Of a DNA stretch of 43,755 nucleotides, positions 39,001-43,755 are shown piece by piece. Position numbers: made by a program. How positions within the stretch are numbered: position 1 is the stretch's first letter; each line of letters begins with the position of its first letter. The DNA is taken from contig JAWOFP010000034.1 of the NCBI GenBank assembly GCA_046497485.1, positions 1 through 43,755 on the forward strand. The letters are read 5' to 3'. The stretch is from Candidatus Nanohaloarchaea archaeon (GTDB taxonomy: Archaea > Nanohalarchaeota > Nanosalinia > Nanosalinales > Nanosalinaceae).

Positions 39001-42000
39001 TATCACTATGCATGGACGCGTTTTACCTTGTTCAGAACCTTTCTTAGGCTCAAGATCTACTAGAATAAGATCTCCTCTAGTTATTTCCATGTTTAAATCG
39101 AATTTGTTTCAGAGGCTTGAAGCATTTCTTCCGAAATTTCTCTTTGCTTCTCTGAGCTCATCTGTTTATAGGCCTTTTTCAGCTCTTCTTTTGAGTCCTT
39201 CTCTTTCTCTATAATTAGTTCTCCTTTTTCGTTTTCCTCAAACTCTATTCTGTCACCAGGCCTGATCTTTTCTTTATCTCTAATTTCTTTTGGTATTGTG
39301 ACCTGTCCTCTCTCACCGACTTTTCTAGAACTAGAACCCATAATTCATATTTAATTCATACTCTTAAGAATATTTCGGAACAACAAATCTAGACATCTAA
39401 AACTGCTTCCAAGATCCATTTTTTATCCTGGTAGTCGACCTTCATTTCGTTGTATGTCGGAGATTTAATATCCAGAAGACTCATATCTGAAGTGATATTA
39501 TCGACTACAATAGTGGCCTTAATCGTCCAAGAATCTCTTTTCTCCTCCACCTCTAATTCTTCTGCATATGAAATTACGACAGTTTCCGAGTCTTGGAGAA
39601 AAACCAATTCATCTAGGAAATCATATAGTAAGGCCTCCAAATTCTCTGACTCTACCTCTATCTTGTGGTGATACTGTCCATGAGTGTCGCCGCCTACGAT
39701 TTCAGCGAAGGCCTTTACTGCTTCGGAGAACGCTTCCTCTTTTGACTCTCCTTCCGCGTGAAACTTTTCATCCGCTGAGTGTTCAAGTATCTCAAACATC
39801 GAAGTGAACCTCCAAGGCCTTCTCTATCAACTTGTTAGTCTCCCCTATACTTAATTCTGTGTTATCAATTATTAGATCGTAGATAGTTAAATCATCCATG
39901 TCAATCCCGTAGTAGTCTCTGTAACGCTCCTTATTATCTCTATCCCGTTTAATTATACGGCTTCGAGCCTCTTCCTCAGAAATCTCTTCCCTCTCCGCTA
40001 CCCTGCTAGACCGTTCCCCCAAATCGGCTTTCAACCTAATCCTAAGGTCCGAGTAATCACCCATAACATGGCAGGAAATCCGCGACTCGATTACACAGTC
40101 TTCATTCAATCCTTTCTGAAAAGTTCTTCTATCCACCTCTAAATCAGTCTCCTTATCCGCCTTCTCAGAAAGCTCTCCGACCGTCAGGCCTCTTTCCTTT
40201 GCGATATTCCGGAAAAAATCTCCTGCAGAATAATGCTCAATACCCAGAAACTCCGAGATATGCTCAGCCAAAGTACCTTTCCCGGCACCCGATCTGCCGT
40301 CAATCGTAATTAAAATTTCAGAACTTCTTTCTCCCTCAAGACCTAACTCGCTCATATAAGAAAGTTGTAATGACAGCTTTAATGCCTTTAAGCTCATAAG
40401 ATTTTTAACCACAACTAGCCAATTTCATCGAGGGATACTTTGGAAAAAGGAATTTCTTACGACGACATTCTGATCAAGCCTCAAAAAACCAGTGTAACAA
40501 GCCTAGAAAACGTAGATACCTCTACAGAAATAGCAGGCCTGAAACTTGAAGTCCCTATTATCTCAGCTGCAATGGACACCGTCACGGAGAAAAGATTTGC
40601 GGAAGAAATCGCTAAGCTAGGAGGCCTAGGATGCATACACCGATTTATGCCCATCGAGGAACAGGCATCGCAGGTAGAAGAAGTTAAGAAAAAAGACTTG
40701 AAAGTATCCGCAGCAATAGGCCTGAAAGATAGAGAAAGGGCTAAAGCACTTTTAGATGCAGAAGTTGACGCCCTTGTAATTGATATAGCTCACGGCCACC
40801 ACGAAAGCCTGCTTGAAGAGCTAGAATATTATTCTGAAACTGAAGCCACAGTTATCGCAGGAAATATAGGAACTGCAGCCGGCGCCAAGGATCTGGAAGA
40901 GGCGGGCGCCGACGCCGTAAAAGTAGGTATAGGCCCAGGTTCATCATGCATAACAAGAGAGATGACAGGCGCAGGAGTTCCACAGTTTACAGCTGTAAAG
41001 AACTGTGCTGAAGCAGTCGACATACCAATAATCGCTGACGGAGGGATCAGAAAGCCTGGAGACCTTGTAAAGGCAGTAGCTGCAGGGGCTTCAGCAGGGC
41101 AAATCGGAGGAATGTTCGCAGGCACAAAGGAAACTCCAGGAGAAATTATGGAGATCGAAGGAGAAAAATACAAAGTCTACAGAGGCATGGCCTCAAAGGA
41201 AGCAGCAGAAAAAAGAGCTGAAAGAGAAAAAAGAGACGAAAAATACTCCGATAGAGTACCTGAAGGAGTAGAAACCAAAGTAAAATACAAAGGCCATCTA
41301 AAAAACATCATATCAAACCTTGAAGGAGGCCTCCGTTCAGGGATAAGTTACTGCGGAGCAGACAACGTGAAAGAAGCCCAGAAAAAAGCCGAGTTCATAG
41401 AGATCTCAGAATCAACACAGTCAAGGAACTCACATCACGCAGAAAGCCTGTAAAAATCAAAAAATCCGAATCAGATAATGGCTTGACCAACTCTTTACAC
41501 AGATGCCTAGCTGGCTCACGAAATTAATTATATTTTCAATCGCGGTTAAACCAAATTAATATAACGCCGTTATATTTTGGAAGATAATTCCATAGAGGCG
41601 ATCAAACACTAAAAAGACTCATAAATAAGCAGTAAAAACCATTAAAAACATTAAAAACACTTAATACAATATGGCTAGCCCAGAACAAATCCAGAAGATA
41701 AAAAAGCTAGCTAAAAAAGGAGAATCAGTTAATAAAATTAAAGAAACACTAGAACTACCGAAATCAACAGTTTATTATCACTTCAAAAAAGAAGTAGGAC
41801 AAAAACAGAAAGAAAAGGCCTTAAAAATCCCAGAAGACGAAGAAATCAAAGGAGAGCTATGTGGAATATTCGCAGGCGACGGAAACTTCTACAAAGAGAA
41901 AAACCAGCAGTACAGGATAAGATTTTATTTCAATTATCACGAAAAGTATTGGGAAGTTCTTGCCGATTTTCTTGAAGAGAAACTTGAAAGAAGGCCTCGA

Positions 42001-43755
42001 ATCTATAAATATCCTCATAAAGGGCGCGTAGAATTTGATTACTCATCTAAACCTCTTTACAAATTGTTAAAAGAAAACCTTGACTGGGGCACAGATAAAA
42101 CAGAAAGCATTAGGCTGAAAGAAGATAAAGATTTCTGCGAAGATTTTCAAAGAGGTTTTATTAGAGGTCTTTTAGATACTGACGGTCATCGAGAGAAAAA
42201 GTTTAGAAGATTTATCTATGGGACAATAAGCGTAAGTCTGCGAAATAATTTTTCCAAGATATTAGAAGATTTTATTATAGAACATACAAATTATAAAGAA
42301 GAACCAGAACAAGAGCATTGGAGAACTATGCACAAACTGTGGATTTCAGGTGACGAAGCAGAGATATTTCAGAGAAAAATAAGCCCTAGAAATCCGAAGA
42401 AGCAATATCGCGAGTTTTAAAGAAAAATTACATTCTTTTGACGCGTTAGAATAAGTATAGACGCGGAGCGCGGGATTTGAACCCGCGTTACCACCGCTCC
42501 GCGCACAACACAACGAGGTGATGTGGTTGACAGGGTGGTATGATGGGCCAGACTACACTAGCTCCGCTGTATTCTAACAGTTGATGGTGAGTTTTTTAAA
42601 CCATTACTAAATAGGAAAGGAACTAAACCTTTTGGAAAGTGAGTTAGCTTATGGATTACATAGTGATCGGTGACGGAGTAGCAGGCGCGACGGCTGCAGA
42701 AAGGATTAGAAAAGAAGACGAAAAGGCCTCTATAAAGGTTTTTACGGATGAGTCTCAGGCCTTGTACAACCGGATTATGTTGAAGACTTTCATGAAAGGT
42801 ACTTTACCTGCCCAGTATACTCAGATGCATGATGAGGATTGGTATGAGAAAAAGGGTATTGATCTTTATTTGGAGACTAGGATTGAGGAAGTAAAAGATG
42901 AGTATAACAGTGTTATCTCAGAAGATGGTGAGGAATATTCTTACGATAAATTACTGGTGGCGACAGGCGGATCACCTCGAGAATACCCGTTGGATGAGGA
43001 TTATGAGAACCTACATTATATGTGGACGATGAAAGACGCAGAAGAGATTAAGGACTCGGCTGAAAATTCTGAAACCGCAGCAGTAATTGGCGGAGGCCTA
43101 CTGGGAATCGACTTAGCCGTAGCTTACGCAGAAAACGACTGCGAGACCTATTACCTGATTCGAGATGATAGATGGTGGCATCGCGGCATCTCAAAGAAAG
43201 GAGCAGAAATAATTCACAGAAAACTAGAGGAAAAAGGCGTCAATGTAATTACTGAAACAGAGGCCTCAAGTTTTGAAGGAGAAGAAAAAATTGAGAAAGT
43301 TGTAACAGAAAGCAGAGAGTTTGAGGTTGATGCAGTTGCTTTAGCAATTGGACAGACACCTAACTCAGAGATAGTTGATGTTGAGAAGAATGAGGCCTCA
43401 ATGATTAAAGTTGATGAGAATCTCCAGGCTTCTGATGAAGATGTTTTTGCGGCAGGTAACATGGTAGAATACTACTCCCCGGTTTTAGAGGAGAGAACTG
43501 TGAAAGGATCTTGGGATCATAGTGAGGCGATGGGAGAGTATGCAGCAGACAACATACTGGGAAATGATAGGCCTTTCAACTTCATCAACACCTATGGAGT
43601 AGGTCATTTCGATGTACAGTTCTTAGCGATCGGGGACTGGACCGGCGAACCGGTAGAGAAAAAGTATTCAGAGGATGAGTATCGTAGACTCTTCTTCAAA
43701 AATGATAGACTGGTCGGCGCCGTAATGATAGGATTCACTAAAGGCCAGGAAAAAA

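Follow-up and report, generated by a model that had tools for sequence, protein, structure and literature searches.

On balance, we favour the reading that the gene at 41671..42420 in the window (the whole 43,755-nt stretch of nanohaloarchaeal DNA analysed here) encodes a selfish, monomeric, I-DmoI-like LAGLIDADG enzyme whose home is the adjacent tRNA-Asp(GTC) gene, and that it belongs to a guild of such enzymes and spreads by the homing mechanism proposed below. That genes of the window type are mobile, free-standing homing endonucleases tied to tRNA genes is well supported, and such docked endonucleases may show how archaeal tRNA introns spread. The comparison sample comprised 50 related genomes (Nanosalinaceae) and 13 metagenome contigs.

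The endonuclease gene and the adjacent tRNA-Asp(GTC)

The features of the locus, with the evidence for each, are as follows:

41454..41670, no strand: intergenic region upstream of the endonuclease gene (alignment with metagenome contig L123 begins at 41611)
41671..42420, + strand: free-standing LAGLIDADG homing endonuclease gene, family 1, 249 aa plus stop (ORF, Pfam, I-DmoI profile, structural model)
41671..41814, + strand: predicted N-terminal three-helix HTH domain, residues 1-48 (weak Pfam HTH matches, invariant columns, model helices)
41851..41883, + strand: first LAGLIDADG motif, residues 61-71, GELCGIFAGDG, acidic D70 (alignment invariance)
42154..42186, + strand: second LAGLIDADG motif, residues 162-172, GFIRGLLDTDG, acidic D171 (alignment invariance)
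42421..42461, no strand: 41-nt spacer from endonuclease stop to tRNA 3' end (ORF and tRNA calls)
42462..42496, - strand: tRNA-Asp(GTC) 3' exon, 35 nt (Rfam, ARAGORN; joint on an intron-less contig)
42497..42527, - strand: 31-nt intron at position 37/38, ends fitting a bulge-helix-bulge (BHB) (ARAGORN, folding, hand reading, intron-less contig)
42528..42567, - strand: tRNA-Asp(GTC) 5' exon, 40 nt (Rfam, ARAGORN)

The 249-aa ORF matches Pfam LAGLIDADG_3 (PF14528) with 54.1 bits (E 1.9e-14; curated cut-off, 22.5 bits), and its best sequence-profile match in the PDB is I-DmoI (E 1.5e-6, residues 59-235). The AF2 model (pLDDT 92.8) predicts the two-fold alpha-beta-beta-alpha-beta-beta-alpha fold of LAGLIDADG enzymes, with I-DmoI chains as the best fold matches (Foldseek TM 0.70-0.75, E about 1e-8). 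In alignments of 8 and 44 sequences, G69, D70, and G71 of motif 1 and D169, D171, and G172 of motif 2 are invariant; the acidic residues of both motifs are therefore conserved across all 44 homologues, and the protein combines the Pfam domain with the two acidic motifs of a monomeric I-DmoI-type enzyme. Weak Pfam HTH matches cover residues 3-50, where the model places helices at residues 4-15, 20-27, and 31-48 and the same alignments hold the invariant stretch PKSTVYYHF.KEVGQKQK. As judged from sequence and model, the window protein is thus an I-DmoI-like, double-motif, monomeric LAGLIDADG homing endonuclease with an extra N-terminal HTH. The invariant HTH word is also present in Lrp/AsnC-type regulators of other DPANN.

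I-DmoI is the LAGLIDADG endonuclease of the 23S rRNA BHB intron of Desulfurococcus mobilis, and its relatives include I-Tsp061I, PI-PfuI, and the endonuclease domain of the TliVMA intein. It resembles the window protein in being an archaeal monomer with two motifs, besides being its best profile and fold match. The window gene differs in lying outside any intron or intein, in its extra N-terminal HTH of about 50 residues, and in having a tRNA rather than an rRNA host, and the identity is about 22%.

The endonuclease gene (+) and tRNA-Asp(GTC) at 42462-42567(-) are convergent, the endonuclease lying outside and 41 nt from an intron-bearing gene; at 13 metagenome loci the equivalent spacer is 0-46 nt. 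Rfam recognises the tRNA (47.2 bits, E 2.5e-8) with an insertion in its anticodon loop, and ARAGORN with its intron option identifies it as tRNA-Asp(GTC) with an intron of 31 nt. The gene goes unrecognised by the default tRNA tool. RNA folding of the precursor predicts that the anticodon helix is extended and that the intron forms a hairpin, and by hand reading C32-U35 would pair with intron GCGG between 3-nt bulges, giving a helix-bulge-helix-bulge-helix at the splice sites. The same 4-bp central helix with two 3-nt bulges can be read in the Asp and Gln introns and in the initiator tRNA-Met (iMet) intron of genome G022. A DNA contig from run X1, identical to the window over 931 nt (0 mismatches), lacks exactly the 31-nt intron, which confirms the exon/intron boundary; this contig carries the same endonuclease 3' part, and an assembly-graph artefact could also have produced it. 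The genome encodes splicing machinery, namely EndA (97.1 bits, on contig C60), RtcB (534.6 bits), and an archease in the window. The archease and RtcB genes lie near the tRNA-Asp locus.

LAGLIDADG genes docked at particular tRNA genes

The window genome has 11 PF14528 matches, seven within five long intein-bearing frames and four in short frames of 251, 263, 294, and 227 aa (contigs C51, C17, C48, and C60). The genome-wide survey's note had stated that the four intein-less genes all abut tRNA genes and that three of these tRNAs carry introns, and both statements hold: the neighbours are tRNA-Asp, tRNA-Gly(GCC), tRNA-Gln(TTG), and tRNA-Met(CAT), and ARAGORN finds introns of 31, 30, and 32 nt in the first three and none in tRNA-Met. 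By comparison, of the genome's 768 ORFs that reach 150 aa, 22 (2.9%) have a tRNA call no more than 50 nt away, a baseline at which four out of four would be docked by chance with a probability of about 7e-7.

The survey's counts for family 1, to which the window gene belongs, were reproduced (12 strong matches at 11 loci in 10 of the 50 genomes, with three copies broken). Its tally of neighbours needs one change: tRNA-Asp stands at eight loci, and the one tRNA that had been left unnamed is a tRNA-Gly(GCC) with a 56-nt intron, which brings tRNA-Gly from two loci to three. All 13 metagenome family-1 loci with downstream DNA likewise adjoin tRNA-Asp or tRNA-Gly(GCC); near-duplicates are included in both the 11/11 and the 13/13. 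The remaining docked genes had been treated as a single second family. Their docking stands, but they fall into four or more lineages, whose tRNAs are Gln(TTG), Gln(CTG), Leu(CAA), initiator Met, and Val(TAC), with tRNA adjacency at 11/11 loci for lineage 2a, 7/7 for 2b, and 3/3 for 2c. Among 150 listed of the 284 PF14528 matches in the 50 genomes, 15 are short frames (<350 aa), 14 of which belong to tRNA-docked lineages and one of which lies in a 16S rRNA intron. This nanohaloarchaeal family thus appears to hold a guild of LAGLIDADG enzymes that comprises at least five lineages, each dedicated to particular tRNA genes:

Family 1: tRNA-Asp, tRNA-Gly(GCC); 3' flank, convergent
Lineage 2a: Gln(TTG), Gln(CTG), Leu(CAA); 5' flank
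Lineages 2b and 2d: initiator Met; 3' flank
Lineage 2c: Val(TAC); overlaps the 5' end
Single-motif lineage: initiator Met; inside, or just upstream

Family 1 lies 3' of the tRNA at 10 loci and 5' of it in G017, and the gaps between endonuclease and tRNA span -3 to 46 nt.

LAGLIDADG enzymes that target tRNA genes had been proposed to be new meganucleases, a claim to be cut back in view of SegB of phage T4. According to the account in PMC2330249, SegB is a free-standing GIY-YIG homing endonuclease in a tRNA gene cluster; it recognises a site that takes in the conserved T-psi-C stem-loop, and neighbouring tRNA genes spread along with its own gene. As portrayed there, SegB resembles the window gene as a free-standing endonuclease among tRNA genes, but it is a phage enzyme with another nuclease fold, no introns, and demonstrated activity, where that of the window protein is predicted.

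Signs of mobility

The oxidoreductase flank is kept at 40 of 43 tRNA-Asp loci and the endonuclease is present at eight, which makes the gene an indel within an otherwise conserved gene order. It stands beside 8 of 39 complete tRNA-Asp genes, and degenerate family-1 copies occur in G044, G033, and G047; broken copies are also present in G032, G045, G003, and G043. Divergence of the endonuclease is hardly correlated with that of the neighbouring host gene (r = 0.12, 10 pairs), and the host-gene tree requires at least five changes of endonuclease state. The endonuclease tree is star-like and sets neither the direction nor the number of transfers.

Contigs from metagenomes show the gene and its surroundings diverging to different degrees. 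Contig L123, whose homology to the window starts at 41611, has a flank of 86% nucleotide identity and a near-identical tRNA and intron, with a different endonuclease allele that is 54% identical. Contigs from two other runs have endonucleases at 95-97% nucleotide identity vs about 85-88% for pieces of the oxidoreductase gene. Contig L116 is collinear with the window at 84% nucleotide identity, and its endonuclease is 86% identical. A tRNA-Asp allele, A9, occurs in four genera and is accompanied by the endonuclease 9 out of 11 times. In other genomes the tRNA-Asp 3' flank holds unrelated accessory genes, a pattern consistent with a general hot spot for insertion.

Beyond the endonuclease gene of G047 lies a 30-nt remnant of a different tRNA-Gly allele, which starts at about tRNA position 44 (z 5.7). 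In this test the other 18 of 19 loci showed neither repeat nor relic, nor did any of nine loci (9/9) in a second test, and no tRNA-like repeat was detected within 41454..41670 of the window. Since no integrase occurs among the 34 neighbour families scanned and repeats are absent at those 18/19 and 9/9 loci, an integrase-type element at the tRNA gene was rejected.

One relative carries an endonuclease within a tRNA intron. The iMet gene of G022 is interrupted at 37/38 by a 452-nt intron whose ORF, for a 145-aa LAGLIDADG_3 protein (30.1 bits), leaves only about 14 nt of the intron uncovered. Rfam gives no group I ribozyme match at E up to 1, which speaks against a group I intron. As with I-DmoI, the endonuclease sits within an intron of the type that the tRNA splicing enzyme removes. 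I-Ssp6803I, the endonuclease of a group I intron in a cyanobacterial tRNA-fMet, offers a further likeness, in that an endonuclease-bearing intron has entered an initiator tRNA gene at the anticodon loop; there the intron is a bacterial group I intron and the nuclease is of the PD-(D/E)xK type. The G022 protein is single-motif, a singleton in the protein collection, and not close to families 1, 2a, 2b, or 2d. A single-motif gene 31% identical to it lies 44 nt upstream of iMet in G045, and ORF-less iMet introns occupy the same position in six genomes. Taken with the indel pattern, the patchiness, the broken copies, the uncorrelated divergence, and the G047 relic, this intron-encoded case bears out the survey's view of mobile, free-standing endonucleases tied to tRNA genes.

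Introns, variant exons, and the proposed homing route

Introns are far more frequent in docked tRNAs. Pooled over the genomes, 30 of 37 endonuclease-adjacent tRNAs have one, vs 5 of 67 of the same tRNAs without such a neighbour. For tRNA-Asp the figures are 5/8 with and 3/31 without the endonuclease (naive Fisher p 0.004), and a phylogeny-respecting test has only four to five independent contrasts, so that a sign test is unable to reach significance. For iMet they are 8/12 and 2/31 (naive Fisher p 1.2e-4), and tRNA-Gln(CTG) has introns in 3/3 cases beside an endonuclease and 0/5 elsewhere. The docking-associated introns measure 17-60 nt and also occur in the D-loop, where there are many, and in the anticodon stem; lineages on the 5' flank go with D-loop introns in 12 of 14 cases. 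Exons vary as well: the first T-stem pair of iMet is flipped in 9 of 12 endonuclease-bearing alleles vs 2 of 31 others.

The survey's note had interpreted the association as collaborative homing, with the intron perhaps shielding the resident allele. The naive enrichment stands, but shielding as a simple rule fails, since intact endonucleases adjoin intron-less cognate tRNAs in G003 and G043, in metagenome contigs L125, L127, L128, and L129, and, for iMet, in G000, G027, and G030. The intron-less X1 contig, unless it is an assembly artefact, adds a further case against the rule. The iMet allele of the window genome has neither an intron nor an unusual T-stem. Conversely, introns without the endonuclease are found in G011, G028, G047, G029, and G046. 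An intron link of the collaborative kind is plausible and partly supported. The novelty claimed in the note also needs narrowing, as collaborative homing has been described for phage group I introns (PMC3984707). In that description, too, a gene with an intron has an endonuclease gene next to it, the endonuclease is proposed to target the site where the intron inserts, and a route to composite mobile introns is proposed; the present introns differ in being protein-spliced BHB introns of 17-60 nt, not ribozymes, in archaeal tRNA hosts. Work from 2010 on a phylum other than Nanohalarchaeota, cited in PMC10714607, indicates that the introns of archaeal tRNAs, whether their positions are canonical or not, act as mobile elements and that one tRNA may hold several; the citing passage gives no mechanism and connects no endonuclease with them. 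What is new here is a relative with a LAGLIDADG-encoding 452-nt tRNA-iMet intron, a locus with a relic tRNA-Gly 3' end on the far side of the endonuclease gene, and initiator-tRNA T-stems diversified beside endonucleases.

Under the reading that we favour, the enzyme would cut an endonuclease-less allele inside the tRNA gene, and repair from an endonuclease-bearing copy would convert the tRNA allele and copy in the adjacent endonuclease gene. Small BHB introns, which would sit nearest the endonuclease's side, or compensated stem substitutions would interrupt or alter the target, and would co-travel with the endonuclease as tightly linked markers. The outcome would be the gain and movement of tRNA introns at the DNA level. 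Indirect hints that the target may coincide with the intron insertion site are the start of the G047 relic near position 44, the intron-encoded relative at 37/38, and the agreement between intron position and the flank occupied by the endonuclease.

It is also conceivable, if unlikely, that mobile or formerly mobile genes simply land at conserved tRNA ends or flanks, in the manner of integrases, where their own insertion splits the target, and that the introns have nothing to do with them or are linked passengers that play no part in immunity. The intact endonucleases beside intron-less tRNAs fit this, as do the variable tRNA-Asp 3' flank with its many unrelated genes and the narrow gaps, which put the genes at the very tRNA end; the T-stem variation near 3'-flank endonucleases moreover suggests recognition of the T-arm, the element recognised by SegB (PMC2330249), and not of the anticodon loop. 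However, members of a single lineage are found on both sides of the tRNA, the G047 relic begins inside the tRNA and not at its end, an intron at 37/38 houses one of the lineages, introns are strongly enriched and their position matches the endonuclease side, and the scanned neighbour families contain no integrase. That the docking reflects mere chance, or the vertical inheritance of an ordinary gene that happens to be a neighbour, is scarcely credible: the genomes are related, and a one-lineage neighbourhood would be expected to persist, as in the collinear contig L116, yet four different lineages stand at four different tRNAs in one genome against the 2.9% baseline, the association persists where the outer flank differs, and two orientations and two sides are found.

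The G022 intron ORF, its relative upstream of the G045 iMet, and the shared position of the ORF-less iMet introns would suit an ancestral endonuclease inside a BHB tRNA intron, like those of archaeal rRNA introns, with the small introns left over from ORF loss and the flanking genes moved out or never linked. We regard this as improbable, because the G022 ORF is a single-motif singleton not close to families 1, 2a, 2b, or 2d, most small introns (27-40 nt) hold no ORF remnant, and the common intron 3' end UGAGA (hand reading) is no sign of shared descent, being forced by pairing with the anticodon loop. Still less probable is that the proteins are no longer selfish and instead assist the adjacent tRNA gene, acting for example as a DNA-binding regulator specific to it or as a maturase-like helper in the splicing of unusual introns. 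The very strong conservation of the N-terminal HTH, the constant adjacency, and the archease and RtcB genes nearby would agree with such a role, but the gene is missing from most complete tRNA-Asp loci, several copies are broken, intron-bearing tRNAs without endonuclease exist, the catalytic acidic residues are invariant, and divergence does not follow the host gene.

A broader extension of the preferred homing reading is possible, though we think it doubtful: LAGLIDADG enzymes, each cutting a tRNA gene at the intron place, might be the DNA-level engine that creates and moves archaeal BHB tRNA introns, those at non-canonical positions included. If so, the canonical 37/38 position could reflect the top-strand cut of an enzyme bound symmetrically on palindromic anticodon-arm DNA. 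Within the family, three arrangements coexist: the endonuclease adjoins an intron-less tRNA, adjoins an intron-bearing one, or lies inside the intron itself.

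The endonuclease gene at tRNA-Asp(GTC) and its predicted product

The window carries an open reading frame (ORF) that matches Pfam LAGLIDADG_3 with 54.1 bits (E 1.9e-14; cut-off 22.5), with a tRNA-Asp(GTC) gene just past its end. We refer to the lineage of this ORF as family 1.

Features of the tRNA-Asp locus in the window
41671-42420, plus strand, LAGLIDADG endonuclease ORF (family 1), 249 aa, Pfam LAGLIDADG_3
42462-42567, opposite strand, 41 nt past the ORF, tRNA-Asp(GTC) gene (Rfam tRNA model, 47.2 bits, with an anticodon-loop insertion)
42528-42567 and 42462-42496, minus strand, tRNA-Asp(GTC) exons (ARAGORN, Rfam)
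42497-42527, minus strand, tRNA-Asp(GTC) intron, 31 nt (ARAGORN)
40440-41453, strand not given, IMPDH-family gene, an ordinary flanking gene
42651 (start), strand not given, pyridine-nucleotide-disulphide oxidoreductase, an ordinary flanking gene

The tRNA gene was not called by ARAGORN with default settings; with the intron option, the same tool reads 42462-42567 as tRNA-Asp(GTC) with an intron of 31 nt. In the folded pre-tRNA, the anticodon helix is extended and the intron contains a hairpin. Read by hand, intron GCGG pairs with C32-U35 and two 3-nt bulges remain, a predicted canonical bulge-helix-bulge motif at the intron ends; the Gln(TTG) intron of the same genome gave the same reading. 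The splicing endonuclease, RtcB and archease are all encoded in this genome. The intron-bearing tRNA-Asp has RtcB tRNA ligase, with an intein (35866-38709, minus strand), and archease (39389-39799, minus strand) at a distance of 2.6-6.6 kb, and a kinase-like gene and archease recur beside tRNA-Asp in many relatives.

The acidic residues of both LAGLIDADG motifs (D70 and D171) are kept in an alignment of eight full-length relatives and, separately, in one of 44 sequences, and the N-terminal PKSTVYYHF.KEVGQKQK is invariant or nearly so despite an overall identity of about 50%. Residues 3-50 give weak helix-turn-helix (HTH) matches in Pfam. The closest solved structure found with the family-1 profile was I-DmoI (E 1.5e-6), and the AlphaFold model of the window protein (pLDDT 92.8) superposes on I-DmoI chains with a TM score of 0.70-0.75, with archaeal intein and intron endonucleases as further matches. 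Based on the profile and fold match to I-DmoI together with the two motifs, the protein is predicted to be a LAGLIDADG monomer with two motifs, extended by a three-helix HTH. Its homologues form 65 clusters; those with a named source are nanohaloarchaeal and, where named, are annotated as "LAGLIDADG family homing endonuclease". A scan with the family-1 pattern outside the nanohaloarchaea matched only Lrp/AsnC-type regulators, through a common HTH word.

Lineages docked at tRNA genes

A profile search of the window genome gave 11 PF14528 matches, seven of them within five long intein-bearing frames and four in short frames on contigs C51 (the window), C17, C48 and C60. The genome-wide survey's note had stated that all four intein-less genes abut a tRNA gene and that three of these tRNAs carry a 30-32-nt intron. 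Both statements were borne out: the neighbours are Asp(GTC), Gly(GCC), Gln(TTG) and Met(CAT), and the introns of the first three (31, 30 and 32 nt, respectively), all at position 37/38, are the sole introns of such size among 41 ARAGORN calls in this genome. Of the genome's 768 ORFs with 150 aa or more, just 22 have a tRNA call within 50 nt, so that tRNA adjacency in four of four cases is far beyond chance.

Among 50 Nanosalinaceae genomes, our search reproduced the 12 strong family-1 hits at 11 loci in 10 genomes, the intron in eight of the 11 adjoining tRNAs and the three broken copies (split in G044, truncated in G033, with an internal stop in G047). The reported count of eight tRNA-Asp neighbours also stands; the one tRNA left unnamed proved to be Gly(GCC) with a 56-nt intron, bringing Gly from two to three. 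The gene is convergent with the tRNA 3' end at 10 of these loci and lies on the 5' side, in tandem, in G017. In metagenomes, a convergent tRNA was present at 13 of 13 family-1 loci with downstream DNA, 0-46 nt from the stop codon (Asp at 10, with an intron in six; Gly at three, all with an intron), near-duplicates (L116/L117 and L127/L128/L129) included. At least one cultivated relative has a family-1 gene. Twenty genomes from other families of the phylum gave intein matches only, and the viral contigs searched held no family-1 relatives. tRNA-Asp and tRNA-Gly(GCC) are not mutual nearest relatives among the window genome's tRNAs, a comparison that was uninformative.

The note's single "family 2", defined by a search with gene g00826, splits into several lineages (2a, 2b, 2c and 2d), each docked at tRNA genes. 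Family 2a (about 277 aa) lies on the 5' side of three tRNAs, in tandem or divergent.

Genomes with family 2a, by adjoining tRNA
Gln(TTG): G000 (the window genome), G003 (remnant), G022, G049, G034, G032 (broken copy)
Gln(CTG): G033, G020, G018
Leu(CAA): G034, G026

All 11 of these tRNAs have at least one intron, in the D-loop in nine, and the Gln(CTG) genes lacking an endonuclease neighbour are intron-less in five of five cases. In seven genomes, family 2b (about 214 aa) is convergent with initiator tRNA-Met (iMet), at gaps of -3 to 9 nt from the tRNA 3' end, and the same place is occupied in four genomes by family 2d (183 aa), whose LAGLIDADG_3 match is weak (30 bits in one member). Family 2c overlaps the 5' end of tRNA-Val(TAC) by 15 nt at two of three loci, and this tRNA has a D-loop intron at all three. 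At L084 (G048:C9) and L096 (G047:C10), the 2c reading frame finishes within tRNA-Val(TAC), whose first 15 nt supply its final four codons (G F V V) and stop. The 150 PF14528 matches listed, of 284 in the 50 genomes, include 15 short frames, of which 14 are members of the tRNA-docked lineages and the other is in a 16S rRNA intron.

Some further observations concern the surroundings of these genes. The window genome's EndA (tRNA splicing endonuclease) gene (G000:C60:1445-1723, minus strand) shares a contig with the family-2b endonuclease and iMet, at a distance of about 1 kb. A tRNA-Lys(CTT) gene with a 125-nt intron at 37/38 (L085, G008:C1, 3080-3278) is about 1 kb from a family-2b gene, and at L182 (G047:C28) the 16S rRNA gene is interrupted near its 3' end by an intervening sequence that holds a 173-aa LAGLIDADG ORF.

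Most of these tRNA genes escape standard tRNA finders or receive a wrong label from them. Infernal with gathering or E-value thresholds and speed filters missed many intron-bearing tRNAs, and ARAGORN with introns allowed mislabelled most family-2 tRNAs, giving wrong anticodons where introns were multiple or in the D-loop; family-2 tRNAs were read by alignment to intron-less relatives. Because default ARAGORN and filtered Infernal miss intron-bearing tRNAs and intron-mode ARAGORN mislabels them, the annotated tRNA sets of these genomes are likely incomplete.

Mobility and the position of the predicted cut

The tRNA-Asp locus was fetched from 43 of the 50 genomes (39 complete tRNAs and four cut by a contig end). 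The oxidoreductase is on the 5' side at 40 of these loci, and the 3' side often carries a cytidylate-kinase-like gene and archease. The endonuclease gene is an indel in this conserved frame; in G032, for example, the kinase-like gene lies 67 nt from the tRNA. At least five changes of endonuclease state are required on the oxidoreductase tree, the endonuclease tree is star-like, and pairwise endonuclease identity (43-59%) does not track that of the oxidoreductase (59-72%; r = 0.12, n = 10 pairs). Metagenome locus L116 is collinear with the window at 84% nucleotide identity throughout, with an endonuclease 86% identical. At L123, the tRNA-oxidoreductase flank is 86% identical to the window and the tRNA with its intron is almost identical, and the endonuclease is just 54% identical, with DNA-level likeness in the first third only. 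In contigs from two runs of another study, the endonuclease is 95-97% identical at the nucleotide level, against about 85-88% for oxidoreductase pieces; this higher identity, on unlinked contigs, points to mobility but is suggestive only. In other genomes, the tRNA-Asp 3' flank is also home to unrelated accessory genes; clusters c79, c85, c116, c196, c12 and c141 at this flank were scanned and are not LAGLIDADG proteins.

Two genomes bear on where the enzymes might cut. In G022, the iMet gene contains a 452-nt intron after position 37 (37/38), which encodes a 145-aa single-motif LAGLIDADG_3 protein (L152:1038-1472, minus strand; L152 is G022:C54; 30.1 bits). Group I intron models did not match this intron, and its ends, read by hand, pair as CUCA-UGAG and AGGCG-CGCCU in a bulge-helix-bulge motif. 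The arrangement is that of I-DmoI, an endonuclease within an intron, except that the host gene is a tRNA; in open-access full texts we found no report of an archaeal tRNA intron encoding an endonuclease. The protein forms a singleton cluster, and a free-standing single-motif gene 31% identical to it lies 44 nt upstream of iMet in G045. G047 retains a 30-nt relic of a tRNA-Gly 3' end, from a different allele, past the endonuclease gene (L019, G047:C23, about 1411-1445), 56-90 nt ahead of the gene start. The relic begins at about tRNA position 44 (z 5.7 vs shuffles) and has the same orientation as the functional tRNA-Gly; the endonuclease gene there contains a stop. Such a trace would be left by a cassette of tRNA-Gly and endonuclease invading a resident tRNA-Gly, and would imply that the DNA broke within or close to the anticodon arm and was joined non-homologously on one side. 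Far-side tRNA-like relics were not found at the other 18 loci of a first scan or at nine of a second, and a sequence ahead of family 2c that resembles the 5' end of tRNA-Val did not rise above shuffles.

Introns, exon variants and possible immunity

Intron or exon variant by endonuclease neighbour (naive Fisher tests, which ignore the relatedness of genomes)
tRNA-Asp with intron: with neighbour 5/8; without 3/31; p 0.004
iMet with intron: with neighbour 8/12; without 2/31; p 1.2e-4
Pooled lineages, intron present: with neighbour 30/37; without 5/67; p 1.7e-14
iMet, first T-stem pair flipped: with neighbour 9/12; without 2/31; p 1.8e-5

Endonucleases on the 5' flank accompany D-loop introns, and those on the 3' flank mostly anticodon-arm introns. 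The exons vary as well: the 12 endonuclease-bearing iMet alleles have six different compensated T-stem types, compared with one T-stem common to 27 of the 31 alleles lacking an endonuclease (loci L133-L178), and four genera share a tRNA-Asp allele type with A9, which is accompanied by the endonuclease in nine of 11 cases. The proposed link between introns and endonucleases stands as a naive association, weakened by intron-less exceptions and by too few independent contrasts for tRNA-Asp (4-5 pairs, with the intron going the same way in about two and the opposite way in about none, too few for significance). For Gly(GCC), a gapped pattern search gave five matches, namely four intron-less alleles, none adjoining a family-1 match, and the window genome's own intron-bearing gene; the comparison without endonuclease is incomplete because the pattern is too strict.

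Overall, the observations are best explained by selfish homing endonuclease genes, predicted to target tRNA genes, that travel as a cassette together with the neighbouring tRNA allele. The predicted cut would lie within the tRNA, close to where introns are found; four observations support this indirectly, namely placement on either side of the tRNA, the relic, the endonuclease encoded within an intron and the match of intron position to flank. It is plausible, although unproven, that introns and stem substitutions act as immunity and have spread with the endonucleases. Against such shielding of the resident allele, intact endonucleases lie beside intron-less cognate tRNAs in genomes G003 and G043 and at metagenome loci L125, L127, L128 and L129, and beside intron-less iMet in G000, G027 and G030, the iMet of the window genome (G000) also being without an unusual T-stem. 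Introns are also present where the endonuclease is absent (G011, G028, G047, G029 and G046), and the unrelated accessory genes at the tRNA-Asp 3' flank also speak against it. In addition, a 931-nt contig from sequencing run X1 matches the window with no mismatches but lacks exactly the 31-nt intron (42497-42527). It may reflect strain-level intron polymorphism beside an unchanged endonuclease, or an assembly bubble may have been collapsed onto an intron-less tRNA with identical exons from a different organism, two explanations that contigs alone do not distinguish.

Collaborative homing in phages has been described for free-standing endonucleases and ORF-less group I introns (PMC3984707), and the archaeal group I introns found to carry LAGLIDADG ORFs lay in rRNA without exception (39 of 39; PMC6125680). 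Transposition of tRNA introns in Thermoproteales was reported, in a passage of a meeting report, without a named mechanism (PMC10714607). Searches of open-access full texts turned up no account of LAGLIDADG genes next to or within archaeal tRNA genes, nanohaloarchaea included. The tRNA-docked endonucleases are a concrete and testable candidate answer to the open question of how archaeal tRNA introns arise and spread, since they comprise several lineages whose tRNA partners are known, alongside natural intron-plus and intron-minus alleles. If they cut these targets, they would be new meganucleases directed at tRNA genes.

Contigs end within tRNA-Asp in four of 43 assemblies (G007:C2, G010:C3, G012:C31 and G014:C39) and within iMet in three of 46 (G009:C130, G017:C22 and G031:C67), the latter all 53-55 nt into the gene, and these breaks may reflect population heterogeneity at both tRNA genes.
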